Shown here one piece after another: positions 6,802 through 54,282 of a DNA stretch of 64,000 bases. Under the pieces are notes generated by a model. The model was not told the DNA's origin. It searched no databases and saw only the letters and a list, made by a program, of their open reading frames with translations. Origin of the DNA: a virus; IMG/VR virus record IMGVR_UViG_2974521666_000001; one strand, written 5' to 3'. The number at the start of each line of letters is the position of its first letter. Within the stretch, counting starts at the first letter, position 1. A program made the translations under genes and the position numbers.

Positions 6802-7203
6802 GTGGCAGAGGACAAGCCGGTGCTCAACCCGCCGACCAAACTTGACGTGGATCTCAGCACCAAAGCTGACGACAAGGCCGCTAAGACGGATGACCCTCGT
6901 CAGGGGTTGCCGACAACCGTACGGTTGCAGGAAAATCAGCCGGCGTACGACTACAGCAAGACGACCAAGGGCACTGATCCTCGGGGCAAGTACGTGCGGT
7001 ACAACGGTGTTGGCACCGTACGGGTCATGGGTCCCAAGGAGTGGAAGGCCGCTGGTGTCAAGTCGGACGACTACTTCGAGTGGAACGTCCTCAACAAGAA
7101 ACGAATCCCGTTGAGTTCGTTCAGCGATGAACAGCTGCAGTATCTGCTGCGTGTGGACGGCCGATTCGAGCTTGTTGAGGACAAGCCGGAAACCAAAGGC
7201 TGA
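6802..7203 (+). CDS. hypothetical protein (133 aa)
   Basis: GTG after a TAGGAGA RBS. Lies in the structural module. Confidence 0.5.
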   Translation: MAEDKPVLNPPTKLDVDLSTKADDKAAKTDDPRQGLPTTVRLQENQPAYDYSKTTKGTDPRGKYVRYNGVGTVRVMGPKEWKAAGVKSDDYFEWNVLNKKRIPLSSFSDEQLQYLLRVDGRFELVEDKPETKG

Positions 7204-30797: not shown

Positions 30798-31040
30798 ATG
30801 GCACTCACCAATGTTCAAAAGGCTGATTTGGCACATGCCTTGCTGATCCAGGCAGGAAACCTTGTCGAGTACAGGGACCACTACGTGGATCAGTTGCACT
30901 CCAGCCTTCAGAATGCGACTACGGAAGACATTGCGACACAGCTCACTATCTGGCTGCAGCGTCTTCCTGGTGAATGGTGGGACTCAAGGCTTCCGAAGCC
31001 AGACGCTCTTCGAGACGGGCGAAAAGGTTACGGAAGCTAA
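30798..31040 (+). CDS. hypothetical protein (80 aa)
   Basis: ATG 30798 after an AGGAG RBS, inside ORF 30732..31040. Confidence 0.55.
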   Translation: MALTNVQKADLAHALLIQAGNLVEYRDHYVDQLHSSLQNATTEDIATQLTIWLQRLPGEWWDSRLPKPDALRDGRKGYGS

Positions 31041-31049
31041 GAGTCCAAC

Positions 31050-31089
31050 GCGCTACTGGCAGACACCCTGGTTCGAGTCCAGGGAGCGC
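31050..31089 (+). ncRNA. tRNA-like acceptor/T-arm minihelix TLM-1
   Basis: GCGCT-ACTGGCAGACA-CCCTGG-TTCGAGT-CCAGGG-AGCGC. 40 nt, 9-nt gap after stop 31040. Confidence 0.75.
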
Positions 31090-31132
31090 ACAAAGCTGTA
31101 GCGCCGCTACGGCACAACAGAGAGGATGGGAC

Positions 31133-31390
31133 ATGAGCAACTTCGAGTACCAGGCCGTTGATCCTGCTGCCGCTGCAGTCGGGTTTGGCAAGCCGTTGCT
31201 GAACAACCCCAGGTGGGCCGAGGAAAACTGTGCTGACACACTGCTTTCCGTAAAGGCCGGTGGGGCCGGTGATCTGTACCTCACAGATCAGCAGGGCAAC
31301 GTGTTCGTCAAGTTCGATTCGGGGCATCCGGATCAGGTCCACGCCGCAGCACGGTGGTTGTCGGTGTTCATACAGTCCATCGAGAGCTAA
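31133..31390 (+). CDS. hypothetical protein (85 aa)
   Basis: ATG 3 nt after AGAGGATGG, inside ORF 30974..31390. Confidence 0.6.
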   Translation: MSNFEYQAVDPAAAAVGFGKPLLNNPRWAEENCADTLLSVKAGGAGDLYLTDQQGNVFVKFDSGHPDQVHAAARWLSVFIQSIES

Positions 31391-31399
31391 AGGCTCTCA

Positions 31400-31439
31400 G
31401 CCGCACTGGCAGACATCAAGGTTCGAGTCCTTGAGCGGC
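31400..31439 (+). ncRNA. tRNA-like minihelix TLM-2
   Basis: GCCGC-ACTGGCAGACA-TCAAGG-TTCGAGT-CCTTGA-GCGGC. 40 nt, 9-nt gap after the stop. Identical to TLM-6. Confidence 0.75.
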
Positions 31440-31484
31440 ACAAAGCCATACAGTCCGTATGGCCCTTACGAGAGGATGGAAGCA

Positions 31485-31739
31485 ATGATCTGCGCACACA
31501 TTCACTACGGTCCTTTCAATTACGGACACAAGAAGTTTGACAACGTCAAGCAGGCCATGGACTACTTCGAGAACGAGGTTGCCGGTGTCGACTTTGGCAC
31601 TGGCACTTCCGAGCAGAACATGGATTTGTATGAGTCCGAATGGGATTGCCCGTGCAACGACCACATGAACTTCCATGATTACCCCATGGAGCGATTCGTG
31701 GTTGCGGCCGACGGCACTCCTGTGGCGGTGGCCATCTGA
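31485..31739 (+). CDS. hypothetical protein (84 aa)
   Basis: ATG 31485 after GAGAGGATGG (in-frame ATG 31476 is the alternative). Confidence 0.55.
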   Translation: MICAHIHYGPFNYGHKKFDNVKQAMDYFENEVAGVDFGTGTSEQNMDLYESEWDCPCNDHMNFHDYPMERFVVAADGTPVAVAI

Positions 31740-31930
31740 TGGCCGCTGAAGAGTCTGATCTTCAAACTGTGTACGACTGCTACTCAACAATGTTGGAGGC
31801 AGCAGGGGTGCCGGGTGACGAAATCGCCTGGTACCAAGAGTACATGGCCAACATCTTGGATAACGTTGGCACACAAGAAGATCTGCAAGAGGTAGTCAAA
31901 GCCATGGTGTACCTGAAAGGGAGACAGTAA
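31739..31930 (+). CDS. hypothetical protein (63 aa)
   Basis: TGATG coupling to the upstream gene. Confidence 0.55.
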   Translation: MAAEESDLQTVYDCYSTMLEAAGVPGDEIAWYQEYMANILDNVGTQEDLQEVVKAMVYLKGRQ

Positions 31931-31938
31931 GCTAAATC

Positions 31939-31978
31939 GGGGCAACGGTTTTCGGGGAGGTTCGATTCCTCCCGTCCC
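31939..31978 (+). ncRNA. tRNA-like minihelix TLM-3
   Basis: GGGGC-AACGGTTTTCG-GGGAGG-TTCGATT-CCTCCC-GTCCC. 40 nt, 8-nt gap after the stop. Confidence 0.75.
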
Positions 31979-32017
31979 ACTAGGCAACCAAAGTGGTTGC
32001 TAGAGAGGATGGGAACA

Positions 32018-32311
32018 ATGGCTACAATCAAGGCGCGCAACTTTCTCTGCCGCAACTGCCACGTGGACGTTAACGTCACCGAGTGTGGCTGCAACGCAGG
32101 CTCTTACTCAATCACCTCTTGGGATTGTGCTCAGTGCGGCATTGAGGTTGTGTCCAGCGGTGGTCGAGACGTTGACTGCTCCAAGTGCGGGGCCTGCTAC
32201 AACGGCTCCGGCCAGCGTCTTCGCAGCGATTGGCGTAGCAATCCATCGGTTTACGACGACAACGTCGGTGACCTGGAGGGCTACGAACTGCAGCACGCCA
32301 ACGACTGGTGA
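32018..32311 (+). CDS. Cys-rich (zinc-ribbon-like) protein (97 aa)
   Basis: ATG after GAGAGGATGG. Contains CRNC, CGC, CAQC and CSKCGAC pairs. Confidence 0.6.
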   Translation: MATIKARNFLCRNCHVDVNVTECGCNAGSYSITSWDCAQCGIEVVSSGGRDVDCSKCGACYNGSGQRLRSDWRSNPSVYDDNVGDLEGYELQHANDW

Positions 32312-32324
32312 CGTAATCACCGGA

Positions 32325-32364
32325 GGGCCAACGGTTTTCGTAGGGGTTCGATTCCCCTAGGCCC
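32325..32364 (+). ncRNA. tRNA-like minihelix TLM-4
   Basis: GGGCC-AACGGTTTTCG-TAGGGG-TTCGATT-CCCCTA-GGCCC. 40 nt, 13-nt gap after the stop. Confidence 0.75.
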
Positions 32365-32406
32365 GCTAGGTCGTTCGTACGGGACGACCTCACAGAAAGG
32401 ATGGAA

Positions 32407-32745
32407 ATGGCAGCACGAAAGATGAAGGTTGTCAAGTCGATTCAGGTCGAGAAGCCGACGAGGTTTGCCCGCGTTCGGAAGGGCAAGGGGCAGAACAGCA
32501 CTCGAGAGCTTCAGGCCCGGTCACTGAAGGCGGCGGCAAACCACGGTCAGCCGTGGAGCGACGACGAGGTGGCCCGAATCGTGGCCGGAATACAGAGAGA
32601 CGAAACGTCTTTCGAACTTGCGCTGGCTGTAGGACGAAGCTACTACAGCACCATGAGCGCCAGGTCACATGTGGCGTTTGCTATGCGCCACGCCAACGCC
32701 TTGGAGTTGGCCGTCAAGCAGGCAGCGCGGGCCAAGCACCACTGA
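32407..32745 (+). CDS. hypothetical protein (112 aa)
   Basis: ATG 32407 (or in-frame 32401) after GAAAGGATGG. Confidence 0.55.
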   Translation: MAARKMKVVKSIQVEKPTRFARVRKGKGQNSTRELQARSLKAAANHGQPWSDDEVARIVAGIQRDETSFELALAVGRSYYSTMSARSHVAFAMRHANALELAVKQAARAKHH

Positions 32746-32760
32746 CAACCCAATCGTGTA

Positions 32761-32801
32761 GCCCTGGTAAGGCGTACTGAGGTTCGATTCCTCAGCAGGG
32801 C
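32761..32801 (+). ncRNA. tRNA-like minihelix TLM-5
   Basis: GCCCTG-GTAAGGCGTA-CTGAGG-TTCGATT-CCTCAG-CAGGGC. 41 nt, 15-nt gap after the stop. Confidence 0.7.
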
Positions 32802-32844
32802 ACTTTGCCCGGCAAACCAGCCGGCAATTAGAGAGGATGGGAAA

Positions 32845-33012
32845 ATGGTGAATGTGTACAAGATTGACGGTTTGCAGCTGCAGGCGATCAGGGGTTATCT
32901 CAAGAACCCTGATACTCATACCCTTCGGATCATGGTTGATGAGGAGGGTGTGAAGGTCAAGTTCAATCAAGGGCCTTGGTCCCCACCACTCGGGGAACTT
33001 GAAAGGAACTGA
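32845..33012 (+). CDS. hypothetical small protein (55 aa), not in ORF track
   Basis: ATG 4 nt after GAGAGGATGG. Open frame MVNVYKIDGLQLQAIRGYLKNPDTHTLRIMVDEEGVKVKFNQGPWSPPLGELERN. Confidence 0.5.
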   Translation: MVNVYKIDGLQLQAIRGYLKNPDTHTLRIMVDEEGVKVKFNQGPWSPPLGELERN

Positions 33013-33013
33013 A

Positions 33014-33238
33014 ATGGCCGATATCCTATTGGCACATGGTGAAAGCACTTCAGGCACCAAACACACCCTGGAGATCGATCCAATCTACGGAAGTCATGAC
33101 TCAATTGATTGGCTGAAGTGGACTATCATGGGTCCCAACGGGAAACGGCACGCAAGTGTCAAGCTGACCTTGGCTGATGCCGAGGGCATTGCAAACCACC
33201 TGTTGGACATCGTAGAAGAGGCCCGTCGTAACGCATGA
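33014..33238 (+). CDS. hypothetical protein (74 aa)
   Basis: ATG 33014, 1 nt after the upstream stop, with a GAAAGGA RBS. Inside ORF 32999..33238. Confidence 0.55.
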   Translation: MADILLAHGESTSGTKHTLEIDPIYGSHDSIDWLKWTIMGPNGKRHASVKLTLADAEGIANHLLDIVEEARRNA

Positions 33239-33246
33239 CAGGGCGA

Positions 33247-33286
33247 GCCGCACTGGCAGACATCAAGGTTCGAGTCCTTGAGCGGC
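33247..33286 (+). ncRNA. tRNA-like minihelix TLM-6
   Basis: Same 40 nt as TLM-2. The 43-nt identity spans 33246-33288 and 31399-31441. 8-nt gap after the stop. Confidence 0.75.
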
Positions 33287-33333
33287 ACTAGGACAGTGGC
33301 ACGGGGCCACTGCCTTAACGAAAGAGGATGGAA

Positions 33334-34263
33334 ATGACCACCATTGAGAACAGTGTGAATGCAGTTGAGCTGATCGATCTGTCGGCAGCTTGCGAGAAGG
33401 CTGGAATCGGTGGGACAGTTCGCAATACGGAAGTTGGCACCGGTACGCTGTACGTGGTGGCCAAGCTTCCTGACGGGAACTGGGCTTTGGACTACGAAAC
33501 TGATGTGATCGACATTGCTGCTTTTCAGCAGGAGGGTTGGCTCGTTGTGTCCACGGCCACAGACGGCGAGGAGACAGAGCAGGATACCAAACCTGCTACG
33601 TACCAAGACTTCTTCGAAGGTTTGCCCACCTGGTCATACTTCTGGGACGGCCGAAACATTGACTGCCAGTACATCTTTACTGGCTGGAAGCAAAACAAGT
33701 ACGGCGACAACGTTCCTGCGTATGTCCACCACCGGTACATGACAACCAGCTTGATGTCCATCTTGGACCTGGATCACGAATGCCAGTGGGAGGCATTCAC
33801 AGTCAACGGTACGCCCAAGGAGGCCAGTCGCGATTTGCGGCAGGCAATCCGGACGATGTACTCGGCCTTGAAAGAGGCAGAGTCGTACAAGCAACTGCAT
33901 AAGGAAGAAGGTGAGCGGCTGGAGGCAGTCAAGCGTGATTTCCGAAAGCTGAACGAACACATCAATTCCTACGCTGAAGAAACCCACATGTGCGGCGACT
34001 ATGAGCGCCGTATCTACGGCTGGAACGAGACCTTCGAGGTCATGGAGCTCGAGGGCCGTGTTCGCGATTACAATGTGCCCGTACGGGTCCCTGGAGTGTT
34101 CGGGGACACTGAGGTCTGGGTTTCGGGTATCAAGGCCCGTACTCCAGAAGAGGCACGGGAACAGGTGCAGCGCATGACCGCTCAGGAAGTGCTGAACAAC
34201 CTGTATCAATCCGGTTACAGCATGCCGGAGTGGACCGTCGGCGATAGTACTCCGAGGGCCTAG
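33334..34263 (+). CDS. hypothetical protein (309 aa)
   Basis: ATG 33334 (or in-frame 33328) after AAGAGGATGG. Confidence 0.6.
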   Translation: MTTIENSVNAVELIDLSAACEKAGIGGTVRNTEVGTGTLYVVAKLPDGNWALDYETDVIDIAAFQQEGWLVVSTATDGEETEQDTKPATYQDFFEGLPTWSYFWDGRNIDCQYIFTGWKQNKYGDNVPAYVHHRYMTTSLMSILDLDHECQWEAFTVNGTPKEASRDLRQAIRTMYSALKEAESYKQLHKEEGERLEAVKRDFRKLNEHINSYAEETHMCGDYERRIYGWNETFEVMELEGRVRDYNVPVRVPGVFGDTEVWVSGIKARTPEEAREQVQRMTAQEVLNNLYQSGYSMPEWTVGDSTPRA

Positions 34264-34278
34264 CCCCAAAGCAGGGCA

Positions 34279-34318
34279 GGGTGACTGGCAGACATCAGGG
34301 TTCGAGTCCCTGACACCC
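34279..34318 (+). ncRNA. tRNA-like minihelix TLM-7
   Basis: GGGTG-ACTGGCAGACA-TCAGGG-TTCGAGT-CCCTGA-CACCC. 40 nt, 15-nt gap after the stop. Confidence 0.75.
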
Positions 34319-34363
34319 ACAAAGCCGTAGGCGTTCTACGGCCTAGCAAGAGAGGATGGAACA

Positions 34364-34597
34364 ATGCCGCTACCAAGGGGGTTCAAGTTCATACGCTGCC
34401 CCGAATGCAAACGCAAAGGTGTGTCATGTAGATTCAGCGGGCGAACCGGGGAGGACTACTGGCAATGCCGCTACTGCAGCTGGTACTGCTATGCAGGAGG
34501 GGAGGACCGGATTGACGTTGAGCGTCGACGAGCACTTGCTGCAGCCAATCCCGGTGAGCCTATATGGGTTACAGCACTGGACGATGACACACTGTAA
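34364..34597 (+). CDS. zinc-ribbon-like protein (77 aa)
   Basis: ATG 5 nt after AGAGGATGG. Contains CPEC..C and CRYCSWYC. Confidence 0.6.
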   Translation: MPLPRGFKFIRCPECKRKGVSCRFSGRTGEDYWQCRYCSWYCYAGGEDRIDVERRRALAAANPGEPIWVTALDDDTL

Positions 34598-34603
34598 CGG
34601 CAA

Positions 34604-34643
34604 GCCTGACTGGAAGGCACCGACGTTCAAGCCGTCGGCTGGC
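34604..34643 (+). ncRNA. tRNA-like minihelix TLM-8 (slightly degenerate)
   Basis: GCCTG-ACTGGAAGGCA-CCGACG-TTCAAGC-CGTCGG-CTGGC. 40 nt with one U-U mismatch in the outer stem. 6-nt gap after the stop. Confidence 0.6.
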
Positions 34644-34685
34644 GCGGGGTGAGCCACTATGGCTTACTACAAGAAAGGGGATGGA

Positions 34686-35051
34686 ATGAAGCACGTTATC
34701 GCTATTTCAGGCAATGACCTTGCGTACCTTCGCAAGGCAGCCTTGTCGGCGTTTCAAGAGGCCGGTCAGATTGGCGTACTACGCATTTACATTACCGATG
34801 ACGGTAAGCTCATGTTTGGAGCACGGGGTCACGTAACCAAAGTGATTGGTAGGCCCATTAAGGCTTCCGATGAAGAGCGCGAAATGGGTTTGAGTGCCCC
34901 AAGCGGAAATCCGTACGCCAACATTGACGACGATGAAGATGCGCAAGATGCTGCTGAGGCAGTAGGCCTCTCGCTTGAAGAACGTGTTGCACACCTGGAG
35001 GAACTGGTCAAGGGCGAGAACATCGTTGTGATCAACCTCTCAAAGTCCTAG
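34686..35051 (+). CDS. hypothetical protein (121 aa)
   Basis: ATG 34686 after AAAGGGGATGG, inside ORF 34659..35051. Confidence 0.55.
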   Translation: MKHVIAISGNDLAYLRKAALSAFQEAGQIGVLRIYITDDGKLMFGARGHVTKVIGRPIKASDEEREMGLSAPSGNPYANIDDDEDAQDAAEAVGLSLEERVAHLEELVKGENIVVINLSKS

Positions 35052-35063
35052 CAGCGCTAGGCA

Positions 35064-35106
35064 GCCGGCCACGGTTGGTTAATAGTGGTTCGAGTCCACT
35101 ACCGGC
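35064..35106 (+). ncRNA. tRNA-like minihelix TLM-9
   Basis: GCCGG-CCACGGTTGGTTAA-TAGTGG-TTCGAGT-CCACTA-CCGGC. 43 nt with a 14-nt linker. 12-nt gap after the stop. Confidence 0.7.
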
Positions 35107-35153
35107 ACGAAGGCAACAACCCGTTGCCTTACATCAAGATTCGAGGATGGAAC

Positions 35154-35555
35154 ATGAAACGTAATGTGAAAGAAGTCGTGGTTGCATTTCTTGTGACCAT
35201 GGGCCTGTTCTTCGCTCTCGCAGCAATCCACAACGCCGCCGTAACCAATGTGGCCAAGGCAGATCCAGGCGTTGGCTGCGAGACAATTCGTTGGGGTTTC
35301 CTAGGAAGCCAAAGGCGCACCATCTGCGACGGGCCGCGCAGGCCTGACGGCAGCTGGGAGCGTTTGCGTCTGATCTGGACGCCAGCGGGTTACGTGCCAC
35401 GCTACACCTACTGCGGTAGCTACTCATGCTCTTCCAGCGGTGGCTACTACCGGGAGGAGACGCTTCAGGGCAAGGAAACGTATGTGGTGTTTGACCACAA
35501 CGTGCTGCCCGATGAGCCGGGTTGGCTGCCACCGGGAACGGACATTATCCGATGA
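35154..35555 (+). CDS. secreted or membrane-anchored protein (133 aa)
   Basis: ATG 3 nt after CGAGGATGG. N-terminal hydrophobic segment VVVAFLVTMGLFFALAAI. Cys-rich mature part. Confidence 0.6.
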   Translation: MKRNVKEVVVAFLVTMGLFFALAAIHNAAVTNVAKADPGVGCETIRWGFLGSQRRTICDGPRRPDGSWERLRLIWTPAGYVPRYTYCGSYSCSSSGGYYREETLQGKETYVVFDHNVLPDEPGWLPPGTDIIR

Positions 35556-35734
35556 GAGACTGCAGCGAGCATGGAACCAATAGCAACGTATGCGATTTCG
35601 CCGGCTGCTTTGGCCCGGCAAAACCGTACCGTTGCATCTGCGGTGACTTCAAAACGGATTCCCCGAGAGTGCTAGACGTGCATATCCTCTGGGCGAATAA
35701 GTTCAGAGCCAATGTGGAGCACGGCTGGCCGTAG
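35552..35734 (+). CDS. Cys-rich small protein (60 aa)
   Basis: ATGA coupling. Inside ORF 35522..35734. Confidence 0.5.
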   Translation: MRDCSEHGTNSNVCDFAGCFGPAKPYRCICGDFKTDSPRVLDVHILWANKFRANVEHGWP

Positions 35735-35742
35735 CCACAAGA

Positions 35743-35782
35743 GCCGCAATGGCATACACCCAGGTTCGAGTCCTGGGGCGGC
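35743..35782 (+). ncRNA. tRNA-like minihelix TLM-10
   Basis: GCCGC-AATGGCATACA-CCCAGG-TTCGAGT-CCTGGG-GCGGC. 40 nt, 8-nt gap after the stop. Confidence 0.75.
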
Positions 35783-35828
35783 ACGAGTCCTGAGCAATCG
35801 GCTTGGGGCACTATGAAAGAGGATGGAA

Positions 35829-36050
35829 ATGCGAGTAGCAGATGCAGTGAGGAAGACCTCTGGCATTCATCGGCTCAAGGTGGGCGAGATGTTCACCGAC
35901 GCAGATGGTGATTGGGAGGTGACCAGAGAGCCTGTGGTTGATGGCGATTGGGTCGTCGTGTACCTGAGGCCCGTGCCCTTTCACGAGGGCCAGCGCGCTA
36001 GGGCCTACCGATATCCCTTGTCAACTCAGGTGAAGATGCTGCGTAAGTAA
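35829..36050 (+). CDS. hypothetical protein (73 aa)
   Basis: ATG 35829 (or in-frame 35823) after AAGAGGATGG. Confidence 0.55.
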   Translation: MRVADAVRKTSGIHRLKVGEMFTDADGDWEVTREPVVDGDWVVVYLRPVPFHEGQRARAYRYPLSTQVKMLRK

Positions 36051-36094
36051 AGCACTCTGCTGTGGCTACGGGGATTGTGCCAAGTAGAGAGATA

Positions 36095-36159
36095 CCCTGC
36101 AACGGTTTTGGCGTGTTCGAGGGTTACACACCAACAGAGGTTCGATTCCTCTGGCAGGG
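36095..36159 (+). ncRNA. expanded tRNA-like element TLM-11 (extra arm in linker)
   Basis: CCCTGC-[34-nt linker AACGGTTTTGGCGTGTTCGAGGGTTACACACCAA]-CAGAGG-TTCGATT-CCTCTG-GCAGGG. The linker can form GGCGTG/CACACC around a TTCGAGG-containing loop. Confidence 0.6.
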
Positions 36160-36202
36160 ACGACGGTGGGCCACCAGGTCTACCGAACGAAAGGGGATGG
36201 AA

Positions 36203-36619
36203 ATGCGTACGTTTACCTTTGGGACCCAGTATGTCCCAGAGACAAAGGCAGTCCTGAAGTGGGGCAAGTACGCCGACGGCAGCACTGCACTACGTGTTGT
36301 GTCGGAGTACGGTGAGCCTCTGGCTACGGCCACAGTCTGCCTGCGCAACTACAACCTTCAGCCGGGTAAAGGCAATGTCTTCATCTACGGGGACTACAGC
36401 GAACATGTCGGAGTGTTCGAGGCCCTGCGGAAGGCCGGGATTGTCGGTGACCCTGTGAACCGAATTCCCATGGGAGGCTTTGGCGCTTTCGCGTACGAGG
36501 CTCCCCTGCTGTGGAGCGAGCACGAGCCAACCTGTGAGGGTATGGCAGACGTGGACTACCACACCCAAGTTGATGCCATGCTCGAACGAGTGGCACAGCA
36601 AGACAACAAGTCCCAGTAG
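36203..36619 (+). CDS. hypothetical protein (138 aa)
   Basis: ATG 36203 (or 36197) after AAAGGGGATGG. The upstream part of ORF 36062.. covers TLM-11 and is rejected. Confidence 0.55.
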   Translation: MRTFTFGTQYVPETKAVLKWGKYADGSTALRVVSEYGEPLATATVCLRNYNLQPGKGNVFIYGDYSEHVGVFEALRKAGIVGDPVNRIPMGGFGAFAYEAPLLWSEHEPTCEGMADVDYHTQVDAMLERVAQQDNKSQ

Positions 36620-36627
36620 ACTGGGCA

Positions 36628-36667
36628 GCCCGAAAGGCATACACGCTGGTTCGAGTCCAGCGCGGGC
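36628..36667 (+). ncRNA. tRNA-like minihelix TLM-12
   Basis: GCCCG-AAAGGCATACA-CGCTGG-TTCGAGT-CCAGCG-CGGGC. 40 nt, 8-nt gap after the stop. Confidence 0.75.
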
Positions 36668-36709
36668 ACGAGCGCCATAGTGGCGTATCAAGAAAGGGGA
36701 TGGACTGAG

Positions 36710-36916
36710 TTGCATAGAGAAACGGAATTCGTGCTCGCCCGCGAGCTCAGCGATGGCAGCCTACCTCACATGCCACCGGCAGATGAGCTGCCACATCGTG
36801 GCCGAATCACAAGGATTCTCAACGACTCTGGGGTGTTGACAATCGAGTGTGAGGACGGTATGCTCAGCCGAGGGATGAACGCCCCGGTTGAACGGTACAA
36901 GAGGGAGGCTCAGTGA
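36710..36916 (+). CDS. hypothetical protein (68 aa)
   Basis: TTG 36710, 6 nt after AAAGGGGATGG. The track start GTG 36680 lies inside the spacer hairpin. Confidence 0.45.
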   Translation: MHRETEFVLARELSDGSLPHMPPADELPHRGRITRILNDSGVLTIECEDGMLSRGMNAPVERYKREAQ

Positions 36917-37038
36917 ACAAACTGCGGAAGTTGTTGCGAGCCTACAGAGTTTCGCAGCACAGACGCCGGCTGAATGACGAAGCCCATATCGCTTGGGCCA
37001 GATCACTACTGGCAGAACGTGAACGACCGGTAGACTAG
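36913..37038 (+). CDS. hypothetical small protein (41 aa), not in ORF track
   Basis: GTGA coupling. Its stop lies 12 nt before TLM-13, matching the stop-then-minihelix rule. Confidence 0.35.
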   Translation: MNKLRKLLRAYRVSQHRRRLNDEAHIAWARSLLAERERPVD

Positions 37039-37050
37039 TACAGCACAGGA

Positions 37051-37090
37051 GTCCGACTGGCAGACATCAGGGTTCGAGTCCCTGACGGAC
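37051..37090 (+). ncRNA. tRNA-like minihelix TLM-13
   Basis: GTCCG-ACTGGCAGACA-TCAGGG-TTCGAGT-CCCTGA-CGGAC. 40 nt. The core is identical to TLM-7 with a compensated outer stem. Confidence 0.75.
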
Positions 37091-37148
37091 ACGACTTGGA
37101 GCCACGAGGGAGACTCCAAGCACCACAACAGAAAGAGGATGGGAAACA

Positions 37149-38345
37149 ATGGGCGCAGAAACCATGGAGTGGTACAACAACTTCTGCCTGATCGGGCACA
37201 CCAATCAGCGTGGAAAGAGTTGGCACTATATGGAGTCCATGCAGGGAGAGGAGCCGAATCATTACCCCGAGGGCATCCCGTATGACGATGTTGTACGGCG
37301 GCTATTCAATTGGAAGCCAATGCTTACCCGTACGGCAAACATGATTCCATGTGAGTTGCTACGGGATGAGGCAGGACAGCCCTTGACCGACGACCAGGGA
37401 CGCCGTCGCTACGAACCTGAGCCGTCAGTATGGGTTCAGCGTGTGGACAGCAACGGCAACCCAGTGTTCCACGAGGGCCGTCCGGTCAACGTTCCCATGA
37501 AACTGGTAGAGGTCCATGACAAACGGGGCCTGGTCCGTAGCGACAACTACCTGGAGCTGGGGCACCCCGGCAAGAACTACAAGATCCACGACTACGAGGA
37601 GTGGCTCTTGCAGTTGCTATCCAACGTGATTGGGGACACTCTCGACATTTGGTCAGCAATCCTGTTGCGCAATGGCGCTCAGGCCTGTGTCCAGGTGGCT
37701 CTTCCTGAGACGGCTCACGACAGCACAACTGGAATGGACTTTGTTCCATACGTCCACTGCTATACGAGCCTAGACAGTAGTCTGGCTACCACTTTCGCTG
37801 GCCAAACGCTGTTGATCGTGTGCGACAACACGATGACTGCGGCCAACGCAAGAGCAGCCAAGGCAGGGCGGCAGTACAAGGCACGTCACACGTCCGGAAG
37901 CCTTGAGACCCACAAGATCTCTGAGGTCCGGCAAGCCCTGTCGATTATTCACCAAACCGCAGACAGCTCTATGGAATTCTTCCACAAGCTGGCTGCCATT
38001 GAAGTGCCCAACAAGAAGTGGATTGAGGTGCTAGACATCATCATTCCACCGGGTGATCCCAACAAGGACAGCACCAGGACCGTTCGTGGTCGTGAGTCCA
38101 AGAGGGAACACCTGAACAGCGTGTACCAAAGTGACCCTATGGCGAATACCTGGAAAGGTACTGGCCTTGGGGTGGTACAGGCAATCAACACCTACGCAAC
38201 CCACTACGCGCCACTGCGCGGCCGCTCCCGTGTTCAGGGCAACGCTGCCAAGCTGGTGGACGGTGAGTTTGCCAAGGTGGACAGCAAGAGCGTGCAGGCC
38301 CTTGCTCAAGTGATGGATATGCCAGAGTTGTTGACTACCAACTAG
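37149..38345 (+). CDS. hypothetical protein (398 aa), possibly DUF932/TIGR03299-like phage-plasmid protein
   Basis: ATG after AAGAGGATGG. The family guess is from memory of its size and N-terminal features only. Confidence 0.35.
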   Translation: MGAETMEWYNNFCLIGHTNQRGKSWHYMESMQGEEPNHYPEGIPYDDVVRRLFNWKPMLTRTANMIPCELLRDEAGQPLTDDQGRRRYEPEPSVWVQRVDSNGNPVFHEGRPVNVPMKLVEVHDKRGLVRSDNYLELGHPGKNYKIHDYEEWLLQLLSNVIGDTLDIWSAILLRNGAQACVQVALPETAHDSTTGMDFVPYVHCYTSLDSSLATTFAGQTLLIVCDNTMTAANARAAKAGRQYKARHTSGSLETHKISEVRQALSIIHQTADSSMEFFHKLAAIEVPNKKWIEVLDIIIPPGDPNKDSTRTVRGRESKREHLNSVYQSDPMANTWKGTGLGVVQAINTYATHYAPLRGRSRVQGNAAKLVDGEFAKVDSKSVQALAQVMDMPELLTTN

Positions 38346-38353
38346 TCTGGTGC

Positions 38354-38393
38354 GGGTGACTGGCAGCCACCGGGGTTCAAGGCCCCGGCACCC
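38354..38393 (+). ncRNA. tRNA-like minihelix TLM-14
   Basis: GGGTG-ACTGGCAGCCA-CCGGGG-TTCAAGG-CCCCGG-CACCC. 40 nt, 8-nt gap after the stop. Last copy of the array. Confidence 0.7.
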
Positions 38394-38565
38394 ACTTACT
38401 CGTGATGGATAACAGCCTGGGTTACTAGCCTGAGCATCTCAGTGTTAGTCCTACGGCTATCTCATTTTTCGTGCCAAGCAGGCTCTCGTGTGTTATGATC
38501 CGGGGCAGGGTTAGGGCCTAGGCCCGACGCCCTAGACTCCCTACGGAACACACAGAGGATGGCCC

Positions 38566-42988: not shown

Positions 42989-44151
42989 TCCGGTCCTCTA
43001 GGGCAGCTACCGAATTGGGGATTAAGTAGCCCCACTACCATCCTCTGGTGAAGAAGATTGCACGGCCTCCCCGTACAGCCACGCAATGTCTCCCCAGTTC
43101 GGTAGCTCTAAAGGGTAGAGAGACATCGACACTCAGCACGTATTGAGTAGCCCCTCGGCAAGCTGAAAACGTCTGTCTCTCTACTCCTTAGGGCAGGACC
43201 TGCCCTCCAGTGACCGGGGTACGCACCAGCGAAGAGTCAAGTACAGTCCCTCCAAGCCTGGAAGACCCAGTAGCACAGAGCCTCTGCCCCGGTACACGGG
43301 AATTGTTCTTACACAGTTGAATATACTTCGAGCCTGATCGATAGGCAGTAGCAATGCTGCTGAAAGGCCGGTTGATCCCCGGTCGCCTAGTAATCCTAGG
43401 TAACTCAGGCAATCCAGTACCTTCGCCCATCTGAACGGTGGTGGGACGCAGGCAAGCAGAGCGGGCCAGGCCGATACGGTGAGGCCAGTCGTGTACGCAG
43501 CGACTCAAACGCTATAAGCTGCAAGCCTGATGGTTGGTACATGGGAGGGATACATAGTGCGAGTAGGCATACAAGTGCGGTATCCATGGAGGCCCCAAGG
43601 CGTGGTTGGCGAATCACGTAGGAGCTGAAGAGCACAAGTAGCGGGCACGTGAAAGTGCGATGGCGTGGTGCATTCTGTGGCTCAAAAGGCGACGGAACAC
43701 CTGGGGCAGCACGTCGTCAGATCGTATGGCCTGGTCTCCCTAAGGGACCACCAAAGCGCTCAGGCAAGAGCACTACCATTGGGAGGTAGCAACGGTGTAA
43801 AAGCCGTTTCCGGTTCGACTCCGGCAAAGCAAAAGTCTGTCCCCGCTAGCAACGAAAGTACCCTAATCCCTAGGGCTTACGCCAACTAGGGCACCGGAAG
43901 GCTCGCAAGGCCGACTGGTGTTGCTAGACAAAGTAGTGCAGGTAGGGGGAGGCCACCCCTGACCGAATCGAAACGTCAGCGAGTAGTTCGCTAGTGTAGG
44001 TAGTGGTTCCGCCAATCAAACGGGACCGGGTACGGTGGCTGCAAGTGGGAGCTTGCGGACAAGGAACTAACACATAAGGTTCTGAAAGGCCACTGGGATT
44101 AGGGTCAAGTCTACGCCCTTTCCACCCCTAACAACAAGAGGATGGTAACTC
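42989..44151 (+). ncRNA. 1.16-kb ORF-free, highly base-paired region (candidate large structured RNA or replication origin)
   Basis: No credible ORF or RBS. 16-bp helix 43005-43020/43092-43107, 13-bp helix 43113-43125/43174-43186, many local hairpins, and a T-arm-like CCGG-TTCGACT-CCGG at 43810-43824. Confidence 0.4.
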
Positions 44152-53746: not shown

Positions 53747-53786
53747 GGGTGAGCGGCACACACCAAGGTTCGAGTCCTTGGCACCC
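53747..53786 (+). ncRNA. tRNA-like minihelix TLM-15 (orphan copy)
   Basis: GGGTG-AGCGGCACACA-CCAAGG-TTCGAGT-CCTTGG-CACCC. 40 nt, 7-nt gap after stop 53739. Confidence 0.7.
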
Positions 53787-53820
53787 ACGGTTCAACAACC
53801 AAGTAACCCTAGGAGATACA

Positions 53821-54282
53821 GTGGCAAATCAGGGGATGTTTCCCACTCCGCACGTCTACGTTGCTTCGAGCTGGCGAAACCAATTCCAACCCAATGTCGT
53901 TCAGGCCCTAAGGGCTGCCGGCTACGCTGTGTACGACTTCAAGAACCCCAACGGTGAGAAGGGGTTTGCGTGGTCGGACATTGTAGACGACAACCACGAC
54001 AGTGTGTCCACAACTGAGTACCTGGACATCATCGCTCACCCCTTGGCAGACAAGGGCTTCCAGCGAGACATGAACGCTCTGTTCGCCTCTGACATTGTGG
54101 TGCTGGTGCTGCCGTGCGAACGTGACGCTCACCTGGAGTTGGGGTGGGCCGTCGGCGCGGGCAAGCAGACACACATTTTGCTTGACAACCCTTGTAAGGC
54201 TAGCCTGATGTACAAGATGGTGGACTTCATCCACCCGACGCTGGAGGACCTGCTTGTCACCCTAGGGGATGCTGATGCCTGA
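53821..54282 (+). CDS. nucleoside 2-deoxyribosyltransferase-like protein
   Basis: GTG after an AGGAG RBS. YVASSWRN..VVLVLPCERDAHLELGWAVGAGK resembles the NDT-like family seen in actinophages. Confidence 0.5.
   Translation: MANQGMFPTPHVYVASSWRNQFQPNVVQALRAAGYAVYDFKNPNGEKGFAWSDIVDDNHDSVSTTEYLDIIAHPLADKGFQRDMNALFASDIVVLVLPCERDAHLELGWAVGAGKQTHILLDNPCKASLMYKMVDFIHPTLEDLLVTLGDADA

Follow-up and report, generated by a model that had tools for sequence, protein, structure and literature searches.

The stretch of DNA analysed here, hereafter the window, comprises 64,000 nucleotides (nt) of a virus (IMG/VR record IMGVR_UViG_2974521666_000001) and carries, within a block of small genes, a repeated 40-nt element that resembles the upper half of a transfer RNA (tRNA). 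With 100% identity, the region corresponds to Mycobacterium phage Send513 (Cluster R, Papyrusvirus), the window position being the record position minus 7547, and 11 further Cluster R genomes match the Send513 region at 96.5-99.2%. In total, 15 copies are present in the 64 kb, 14 of them in an array and one isolated at 53747-53786, and every copy is located on the gene (+) strand, between small genes. Neither the GenBank nor the RefSeq record of Send513 annotates a tRNA or a repeat feature at any of them. The only recognisable products of the block are a DUF932 protein, a CDGP-domain protein and a helix-turn-helix protein; no RNA enzyme is encoded in it.

The 40-nt plan consists of an outer stem of 5 base pairs (bp), an 11-nt linker (A..GG....CA), a 6-bp inner stem, a 7-nt loop (TTCRANN), and the 3′ strands of both stems, which are contiguous. 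Eleven of the 14 array copies measure exactly 40 nt, the exceptions being those at 32761 (41 nt), 35064 (43 nt) and 36095 (65 nt, with an extra arm). A first-pass annotation, made from the letters alone, had described the 14 array copies, eleven of them of 40 nt, and all were found again both by reading the sequence and by a mechanical parse. The parse gave exactly the same loop counts (TTCGAGT in eight copies, TTCGATT in four, TTCAAGG in one and TTCAAGC in one), and the gaps between stop codon and element are also as described (6-15 nt, and 44 nt for the copy at 36095). One detail has to be amended: the inner stem was said to end in GG everywhere, whereas in the copy at 34604 it ends in CG, and a U.U mismatch interrupts the outer stem of this copy. 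By chance, the T-arm pattern would be expected 0.6 times in the window; it is found 15 times. A covariance model (R1), a check proposed together with the annotation, was built from twelve 40-nt window copies; run on the window with filters off, it reports exactly 15 sites, all on the + strand, including the three atypical copies outside the training set. The copies are as follows (scores in bits are those of the model).

31050-31089 (+): element 1, GCGCT / ACTGGCAGACA / CCCTGG TTCGAGT CCAGGG / AGCGC, then A-C; 59.5 bits; 9 nt past the gp45 stop at 31040
31400-31439 (+): element 2; 61.8 bits; 9 nt past the gp46 stop; 43-nt core identical to element 6
31939-31978 (+): element 3, of the AACGGTTTTCG linker subtype with TTCGATT loop; G.U in the outer stem; matched by the model
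32325-32364 (+): element 4, AACGGTTTTCG subtype; G at position 41; 48.9 bits
32761-32801 (+): element 5, 41 nt, with 6-bp outer stem and 10-nt linker; partial match, 18.7 bits
33247-33286 (+): element 6; 61.8 bits
34279-34318 (+): element 7; 62.2 bits; 32-nt core common to element 13
34604-34643 (+): element 8; U.U in the outer stem; loop TTCAAGC offset by linker G14 (G14:C29); 48 bits; overlaps annotated gp54
35064-35106 (+): element 9, 43 nt, with 14-nt linker; 21.2 bits, outside the model-building set
35743-35782 (+): element 10; 60.9 bits
36095-36159 (+): element 11, expanded into a three-way junction by an additional hairpin that follows the D-loop-like linker and precedes the T arm; z = -3.0
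36628-36667 (+): element 12; 56.5 bits
37051-37090 (+): element 13; 60.8 bits
38354-38393 (+): element 14, last of the array; loop TTCAAGG offset by linker C14 (C14:G29); no ribosome-binding site after it; 55.9 bits
53747-53786 (+): element 15, isolated; 7 nt past the gp78 stop, before a nucleoside deoxyribosyltransferase gene; 57.4 bits

Fold and identity of the element

The stems of the element vary in sequence and are maintained in pairing. In the window, 99.2% of the stem cells are paired, against 37-52% in slid-register controls; 9 of the 11 stem pairs have changed on both sides, and none of 500 shuffles reaches such pairing, so that the compensatory changes first noticed by eye stand. 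For instance, elements 7 and 13 share, as had been claimed, an identical 32-nt core and differ in three outer pairs, all of them compensated. Orthologues tell the same: the G.U of element 3 in Send513 is A-U in Papyrus and Rope, and element 11 of Rope has C-G for A-U in the T stem and, in the outer stem, U in place of C, giving G.U, while its extra arm is of unrelated sequence and still a 7-bp hairpin. RNAalifold independently predicts the same structure. Since the z-scores of single-sequence folding are only modest (-1.3 to -2.0, and -3.0 for the expanded copy), the case for the fold is comparative, not energetic. Among the non-Watson-Crick stem positions, G.U (42) outnumbers A.C (9), which identifies the sense (mRNA) strand as the folded one.

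Two sequence patterns covering linker and T arm fetched 137 stretches of IMG/VR contigs, in which the model gives 291 matches (E<=1e-3), nearly all of them full-length. When mutual information is calculated over about 190 distinct copies, two non-helical column pairs rank among the helix pairs. The first one joins linker nucleotides 7 and 13 and, in 145 diverse copies, is A-U in 68, C-G in 51, G-C in 17, U-A in 5 and something else in 4; it is thus Watson-Crick in 141/145, with four pair types. The second one joins linker nucleotide 14 with the last nucleotide of the T-loop, 29 (tRNA nucleotide 60), as A-U in 100 of the same copies, G-C in 13, C-G in 5, U-A in 1 and G-U in 2. All four Watson-Crick types are used here, the exceptions are mostly U.U in the AACGGTTTTCG/TTCGATT subtype, and two compensated cases are found inside the window (38354, C14 with TTCAAGG; 34604, G14 with TTCAAGC). 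The patterns fix part of the linker and loop, which is partly corrected by 70 copies that match neither of them, and in these 70 copies both pairs hold. Columns 22:30 (G53-C61) are G-C in 145/145 copies, and the loop has, without variation, T, T and C at positions 1-3 and A at position 5 (equivalent to T54, T55, C56 and A58), with a purine at position 4. The linker GG stands at 64/70 and 63/70 among the copies retrieved without a GG-containing pattern. The complete T-arm signature of tRNA (G53-C61, T54 T55 C56 R57 A58), plus G18 G19, is therefore present.

Taken together, the GG, the T-loop and the pairs 7:13 and 14:29 indicate a putative T-loop/D-loop elbow formed without a D stem, and not just two hairpins. 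In this sense, the docking of the linker GG on the T-loop, proposed in the first reading, fits the near-invariance of the GG and the two covarying contacts. What the comparison of copies has shown is an RNA element of phage polycistronic mRNA whose predicted fold is a minimal tRNA top half, made of an 11-bp coaxial acceptor/T stack, a canonical T-loop and an 11-nt D-loop substitute. The stack amounts to 5 + 6 = 11 Watson-Crick pairs and not to the 12 bp of tRNA; the sole possible twelfth layer is the conserved A(-1) opposite R41.

It is important to note that these are not tRNA genes, as the first-pass annotation had stated. Only 11 nt separate the acceptor and T stems, unlike in a cloverleaf, and ARAGORN, also among the proposed checks, finds no cloverleaf in the window (0 tRNA and 0 transfer-messenger RNA, tmRNA, genes). 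The tRNA family RF00005 gives no window hit at its gathering threshold or at E<=10. With Rfam 15 at gathering thresholds, the only hit in the window is GOLLD RNA at 43658-44118; at E<=10 mascRNA (RF01684) is matched by elements below its threshold (20.5 and 18.0 bits versus a gathering score of 42.5), and a trace of beta-tmRNA appears as a 17-nt, 13.7-bit fragment. The tag frame, the pseudoknots and the size (about 350 nt) of a tmRNA are absent from the element. Neither the window nor any of 14 related loci gives an Rfam hit to the bacterial Y RNA YrlA, and the element is a closed 40-nt unit. An intrinsic terminator would show a T-run, where ACNNN and then a hairpin are found, and sequence-conserved repeats (REP/MITE-like, stoperators, start-associated sequences) differ from elements whose stems diverge with compensation at 9/11 pairs. 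As for attC sites, no integrase is found near the array and no recombinase domain in the block; sequence alone cannot tell a DNA fold from an RNA fold, and the tRNA-type loop and putative tertiary pairs argue for RNA.

No description of the element was found in a full-text literature search, most subscription journals being outside its reach; within the same limit, this and the Rfam searches agree with the earlier statement that it is undescribed in phages. In a 2023 survey that collected candidate structured RNAs from IMG/VR, tRNA-like ones come up solely in cases of overlap with ARAGORN, and in the phiJoe genome paper the words tRNA, stem-loop and intergenic each occur zero times. The element may represent an apparently new form among the already known tRNA mimics that use tRNA-processing logic.

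Gene context and distribution of the family

The position of the element with respect to the genes is sharply defined throughout the family. It starts 6-10 nt (mode 7) past the stop codon of a same-strand open reading frame (ORF), almost never 1-5 nt past it, and ends 33-53 nt ahead of a start codon with a Shine-Dalgarno sequence. The flanks are characteristic as well: A at -1 in 66%, a purine at 41 in 95% and C at 42 in 93%, with C at 43 in 8% versus a background of 29%, a depletion which means that a full CCA is avoided. Genes without an intervening element overlap (TGATG, ATGA, GTGA), and the ATGA/TGATG coupling claimed for them is indeed present in the sequence. The suggestion that the elements delimit expression units agrees with this layout and with an array in which no extra promoters or terminators were found. 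A scan for promoter-like sites reveals no enrichment inside the array, and a scan of the array for terminator-like sites gives 7 versus 9.4 expected, none of them at elements. The first plausible promoter is located at 38471-38499, after the last array copy.

In the 13 internal cassettes, the element is followed by 3-5 nt, a hairpin of 7-9 bp and then (A/G)GGATGG plus the start codon. The hairpins differ in sequence in each cassette and have predicted energies of -8.5 to -15.9 kcal/mol. In GC-rich loci, the 35 nt downstream of the element have a median of -11.4 kcal/mol versus -7.9 kcal/mol in random windows (p about 1e-15). The hairpins of the window are listed below.

31095-31113 (+): hairpin of cassette 1; then AGGATGG, and ATG at 31133
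31445-31463 (+): hairpin of cassette 2; ATG at 31485
31980-32003 (+): hairpin of cassette 3; ATG at 32018
32368-32390 (+): hairpin of cassette 4; ATG at 32407
32805-32827 (+): hairpin of cassette 5; ATG at 32845
33290-33315 (+): hairpin of cassette 6; ATG at 33334
34324-34342 (+): hairpin of cassette 7; ATG at 34364
34648-34668 (+): hairpin of cassette 8; ATG at 34686
35110-35130 (+): hairpin of cassette 9; ATG at 35154
35787-35809 (+): hairpin of cassette 10; ATG at 35829
36164-36185 (+): hairpin of cassette 11; ATG at 36203; in the Rope orthologue the sequence is another and the hairpin is kept
36670-36689 (+): hairpin of cassette 12; TTG at 36710
37095-37120 (+): hairpin of cassette 13; ATG at 37149

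A strongly conserved, extended ribosome-binding motif, GAGAGGATGG / AAAGGGGATGG, is found 3-7 nt before each array start codon (31120-31129 and 12 further sites between 31 and 37.2 kb) and resembles the "start-associated sequences" of other mycobacteriophage clusters. The GGATGG motif is also located downstream of elements in contigs of about 70 kb with a GC content of 0.45-0.49 (L123-L127). In Papyrus (L264, 2431-2651) and Rope (L265), an extra gene of about 213 nt lies between the gp48 stop and element 3 (window 31928-31939); as it sits exactly there, the junction of stop codon and element is the cassette boundary.

Several gene calls of Send513 are in conflict with the elements (34364-34652; 35085-35154; 36062-36203; 53749-53821). 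Annotated gp54 (34491-34652) overlaps element 8, and an ORF with a ribosome-binding site at 34364-34597, unannotated in Send513, is the one that Papyrus and Rope call gp54. For gp56, gp59 and gp79, the annotation places the start inside or upstream of an element, better ones being 35154, 36203 and 53821, each beside a ribosome-binding site. Within gp56, the CDGP-domain protein, 55 nt (35481-35535) are 93% identical, as an isolated match, to phages such as Phrann, Carcharodon and Panchino (Cluster N).

Rarity of the element, as implied by the first-pass annotation, is not what was found: it belongs to a large family, with 291 copies in IMG/VR and others in cultured phages and in two bacterial phyla. 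The model search of other genomes proposed at that stage recovers elements in the IMG/VR contigs and in bacterial loci alike. There are up to 11-14 copies per IMG/VR locus, always on one strand, and the loci span a GC content of 0.29 to 0.70. Among cultured phages, BLAST with one copy matches 170 records, including about 115 Streptomyces phages, R4-like (Joe, phiHau3, phiCAM, Endor1, phiScoe2 and others), and 27 Mycobacterium phages of Cluster R and of Cluster H (such as Konstantine, Predator and Damien); no annotated feature lies under the full-length matches of this search. The eight copies of phiJoe are all in a leftward small-gene block (43.0-47.7 kb), and the seven of Konstantine lie between small genes after the lysis cassette. 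When a 23-nt pattern was applied to bacterial genomes, 73 of 119 matches fell inside genuine tRNA-Leu genes. On the bacterial loci (703 kb) the covariance model gives 29 hits, 28 of which are full-length mini-elements; its specificity is supported, since no tRNA-Leu is reported as a full-length match. Genomic copies are found in Actinomycetota (Kribbella, Nocardia, Knoellia, Microbacterium, Gryllotalpicola) and in prophage-like loci of Bacteroidota (Riemerella, Bergeyella, Flavobacterium, Chryseobacterium, Capnocytophaga, Bacteroidales). An element of the low-GC type has no BLAST match in Escherichia coli genomes and plasmids, one of the Bacteroidota type gives only a partial BLAST hit in cultured phages, and exact-protein look-ups of transcript-derived contigs returned no record.

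The Riemerella locus (L153) looks like a Mu-like prophage, with an element 28 nt upstream of a transposase-like ORF of 680 amino acids. Its two copies are at 2170-2209 and 7150-7189, and the Bacteroidota loci L012, L251 and L067 likewise have two. In these pairs, one copy is 19-28 nt upstream of the transposase-like ORF (about 680 amino acids) and the other about 5 kb downstream; the transposase-side copy is preceded by a conserved AT-rich motif, AAATATAGTGATTTA.

Other arrangements involve tRNA genes, promoters or no genes at all. In Gryllotalpicola koreensis (L156, 7043-7160, - strand), an ORF stop is followed 14 nt on by a mini-element, and a tRNA-His begins 3 nt past the element stem; with this spacing, the element tail ACU is the 5′ leader of the tRNA-His that ribonuclease (RNase) P must cut. 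In another locus (L036), a tRNA-Thr is placed 23 nt downstream of a mini-element. Three GC-rich viral contigs (L010, 6500-7100; L066, 9950-11450; L069, 1850-2250; all - strand) contain ORF-less tandem mini-elements about 110-120 nt apart, whose spacers of 70-80 nt consist of about ten (N2-3 GGC) repeats, e.g., catGGCgcgacgaGGCgtGGC...taGGCcgGGCcgGGC. To judge from their layout, these arrays appear to be non-coding and punctuated by mini-tRNAs, or to be processed into small RNAs, and the (N2-3 GGC) spacers look like a possible binding track for a multimeric RNA-binding protein; as some arrays have no ORFs between elements, the elements would there excise spacer RNAs. In the low-GC contigs L025, L068 and L093, the AC tail of the element runs into a consensus promoter (ACTTGACA-17 nt-TAnAnT), and in this group the element is, as read from the sequence, the putative close of a transcription unit just before the next promoter.

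The GOLLD RNA of the window (RF02032, 180 bits, full model; 43658-44118, + strand) occupies a 1.16-kb unannotated gap between gp68 and gp69 and holds a T-arm-like CCGGTTCGACTCCGG at 43810-43824. Send513 has GOLLD and no tRNA genes; from the tRNA arrays of Mycobacterium, GOLLD is already known (Morgado 2020). A link between GOLLD and the elements was rejected, as Konstantine and Joe carry elements but no GOLLD.

Possible roles of the elements

The interpretation that we tentatively favour is that host RNase P, together with a 3′-end enzyme, processes the polycistronic phage mRNA at the elements. Each element would display the surface read by the universal tRNA-maturation enzymes of the host and hence act as a signal for processing. 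A cut by RNase P at the 5′ edge of the element, 6-10 nt past the upstream stop, would separate the cistrons, and a 3′-end activity (RNase Z, RNase E or exonuclease trimming) may act between the conserved R41 and C42, freeing a mini-tRNA of about 41 nt. The downstream mRNA of actinophages would then begin with the base-paired mini-tRNA or with the following hairpin, either of which would shield the 5′ end. In this way, each of the small, probably early genes would have a stability and dosage of its own. A universal host factor is suggested by the spread across phyla and by the block encoding no RNA enzyme.

Several observations are in line with such processing. Acceptor/T-stem/T-loop hairpins are efficient and accurately cut RNase P substrates, G19, G53 and A58 matter for binding, the C74 of the substrate pairs with GGU of the RNase P RNA, and known substrates include phage RNAs and operon mRNAs (PMC11143913). 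The sharply defined helix ends of the predicted fold (A(-1), R41, C42 and non-C43) fit RNase P, and the companion hairpin enriched in GC-rich loci speaks for the same reading. Further points in its favour are the punctuating layout between stop and start codons, an array without excess promoters or terminators, the tRNA genes that adjoin elements in L156 and L036, and the ORF-less tandem arrays. A minimal tail of 6 nt past the stop codon would leave about 9 nt 3′ of the P-site codon, roughly the length from which trans-translation no longer treats a ribosome as stalled, which would explain the sharp lower bound of 6 nt.

Other observations weigh against it. The stack has 11 bp and not the 12 bp that RNase P measures, so that it is uncertain whether the cut would fall at -1/+1 or at -2/-1. 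The elements encode no CCA, and C43 is avoided. After a cut at the 5′ edge, the last 6-10 nt of the upstream mRNA would form an unprotected tail. In low-GC loci, the 35 nt downstream are not more structured than random windows, and a few low-GC phages (L025, L068, L093) have a TTGACA-17-TAnnnT promoter after the element; in these phages the element cannot cap the 5′ end of transcripts from that promoter. Finally, the conservation figures of the linker and loop columns that the retrieval patterns fix are biased.

Alternatively, the element might remain uncut, as a compact fold that blocks exonucleases (3′-5′ or 5′-3′), insulates cistrons or sits at the ribosome entry channel; the likeness to tRNA would then merely reflect a very stable small fold, or binding of a protein or ribosome through the elbow. 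With a minimum of 6 nt after the stop, the fold would come to lie near the mouth of the mRNA channel when a ribosome terminates, as the geometry of that channel implies. The distance to the next start codon never exceeds about 50 nt, and in the Mu-like prophage-like loci of Bacteroidota the element is part of the 5′ untranslated region of the transposase gene. However, a plain hairpin would suffice for any of this, and the predicted stability is modest (z -1.3 to -2). Selection keeps the T-loop, the GG, the two tertiary pairs and defined unpaired flanks, which points to recognition by a reader of tRNA shape. We consider this alternative unlikely, if the strongest of the rivals.

Rather unlikely, too, is a role as decoy or sponge, in which elements released from abundant, probably early transcripts and CCA-tailed would soak up host antiphage toxins or enzymes whose target is the acceptor end or elbow of tRNA, such as toxSAS (CapRel/FaRel/PhRel type), the nucleotidyltransferases MenT/AbiEii, or RNase P. 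Toxins of the toxSAS, MenT and AbiEii kinds are common in Actinomycetota. The high copy number in small-gene blocks of unknown function, plausibly early, would suit a sponge, as would the ORF-less tandem arrays of some phages and a mimicry limited to the acceptor/T/elbow half. The toxSAS enzymes reportedly read acceptor-stem minihelices and act in antiphage defence (bioRxiv 10.1101/2024.07.05.602228). Nevertheless, the acceptor-stem sequences vary freely, a poor fit to toxins that read acceptor identity; with no CCA encoded and C43 avoided, two processing steps and CCA addition would be needed first; and the sharp spacing of 6-10 nt from the stop and the fixed distance to the next start are left unexplained. 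It is likewise doubtful, and to us slightly more so, that free, CCA-tailed "half-tRNAs" of about 44 nt, cut out by host tRNA enzymes, form a phage small-RNA class of their own, serving as toxin decoys or competing for proteins or RNAs that bind the elbow; the punctuation of the mRNA would in that case be the by-product.

Very little probability is given to a DNA-level module, in which the repeats would mark cassette borders, promote recombination or shuffling (as T4 PeSL or integron attC), or fold in single-stranded DNA. An array of small ORFs with a structured repeat after each one has this appearance, the extra gene of Papyrus and Rope sits exactly at the junction of the gp48 stop and element 3, and a G.T bias is also expected of a strand-specific fold in single-stranded DNA. 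The stems, however, covary and are not conserved, so that a protein-binding site in double-stranded DNA is excluded and the copies share only limited homology; the parts that are conserved are the T-loop/D-loop signature of tRNA and the linker/T-loop pairs; no recombinase is tied to the block; and the element is shared by phages that are unrelated and come from different phyla.

Still less probable is a transcription signal, i.e., a terminator, attenuator or antiterminator RNA. Although the elements are intergenic, GC-rich and followed by a second hairpin, and in some prophage-like loci belong to the first rightward operon beside the repressor region, they have no U-tract, terminator-like sites number 7 versus 9.4 expected, 14 terminators or nut-like sites in one 7-kb operon are implausible, and the tRNA-specific features would be left unexplained. 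As to decayed, functionless remnants of tRNA genes, the linker and T arm do resemble part of tRNA-Leu (hence the 73/119 bacterial pattern matches in such genes), but covariation and conserved length effectively refute the idea and leave it a negligible chance: more than 200 distinct copies keep the exact 40-nt architecture with compensatory changes, relatives in Cluster R, Cluster H and the R4-like group have no cloverleaf at syntenic positions, which the first-pass annotation had named as the sign of such decay, and where ARAGORN calls do overlap copies, as in a few places in viral contigs, the folds are poor and centre on the T arm.

Significance and likeness to known systems

If the reading as a tRNA mimic is true, the elements constitute a class of structured RNA that is both new and abundant. 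Among natural tRNA mimics that retain an elbow they would be the smallest, and they are employed by phages of two or more bacterial phyla, often in 8-15 copies per genome. If they are processed as favoured above, phages would organise their small, probably early, genes through the tRNA-maturation machinery of the host, a counterpart of mitochondrial tRNA punctuation, and multiplex RNA processing in Actinomycetota would gain a natural part of small size. If they act as decoys instead, they would be an RNA-based counter-defence against tRNA-directed immunity. From a practical point of view, gene starts would be corrected in many phage annotations, and a 40-nt model of a minimal T-loop/D-loop elbow would become available, with two covarying contacts as testable predictions.

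The closest parallels are found among tRNA-like modules in longer transcripts. Mitochondrial tRNA punctuation and the t-elements of plants also place tRNA-shaped modules beside coding regions, and the logic proposed for the phage elements is theirs, with RNase P and RNase Z defining the mRNA ends; those are full tRNAs or larger folds in organelles, whereas here a 40-nt top half without anticodon arm lies in phage mRNA and cleavage is inferred. MALAT1 mascRNA and MEN-beta (RF01684) share a tRNA-like fold within a longer transcript, which in their case is processed by RNase P and RNase Z and CCA-tailed; mascRNA, found in vertebrates, is a cloverleaf of about 60 nt that includes an anticodon-like arm, and the only Rfam family with even a weak hit (20.5 versus 42.5 bits). 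In the TMERs of Murid herpesvirus 68, a viral tRNA-like unit is followed by pre-microRNA hairpins and separated from them by RNase Z. A tRNA-like unit directly followed by a hairpin and present several times in the genome is common to both systems, as would be the use of tRNA enzymes as a processing tool, but the TMERs are eukaryotic RNA polymerase III units with full cloverleaves, and their hairpins become microRNAs. The PeSL of T4 and the start-associated sequences of Cluster K (SAS/ESAS) are conserved in sequence, as promoters or as inverted repeats by start codons. They resemble the present system as repeated motifs between small genes, and the GAGAGGATGG upstream of starts resembles a start-associated sequence; unlike the elements, they show no tRNA features or covarying stems.

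The tRNA-like domain of tmRNA and YrlA also lack an anticodon arm and have in common with the element the acceptor stem, the T arm and the D-loop/T-loop elbow; YrlA reportedly mimics tRNA and occurs in phages too (PMC4201824). In these RNAs, by contrast, the acceptor strands are far apart, within a large RNA with tag ORF and pseudoknots or next to a Ro-binding stem. The model substrates of RNase P (AT1, pATSer) are similar in that an acceptor/T-stem/T-loop hairpin is sufficient for accurate cleavage, and natural substrates such as the C4 RNA of P1/P7, phage M3 RNA and operon mRNAs indicate that phages already exploit this enzyme (PMC11143913). The former are laboratory constructs and the latter single sites; to them the present element adds a D-loop substitute, a large conserved family and an organisation in arrays.

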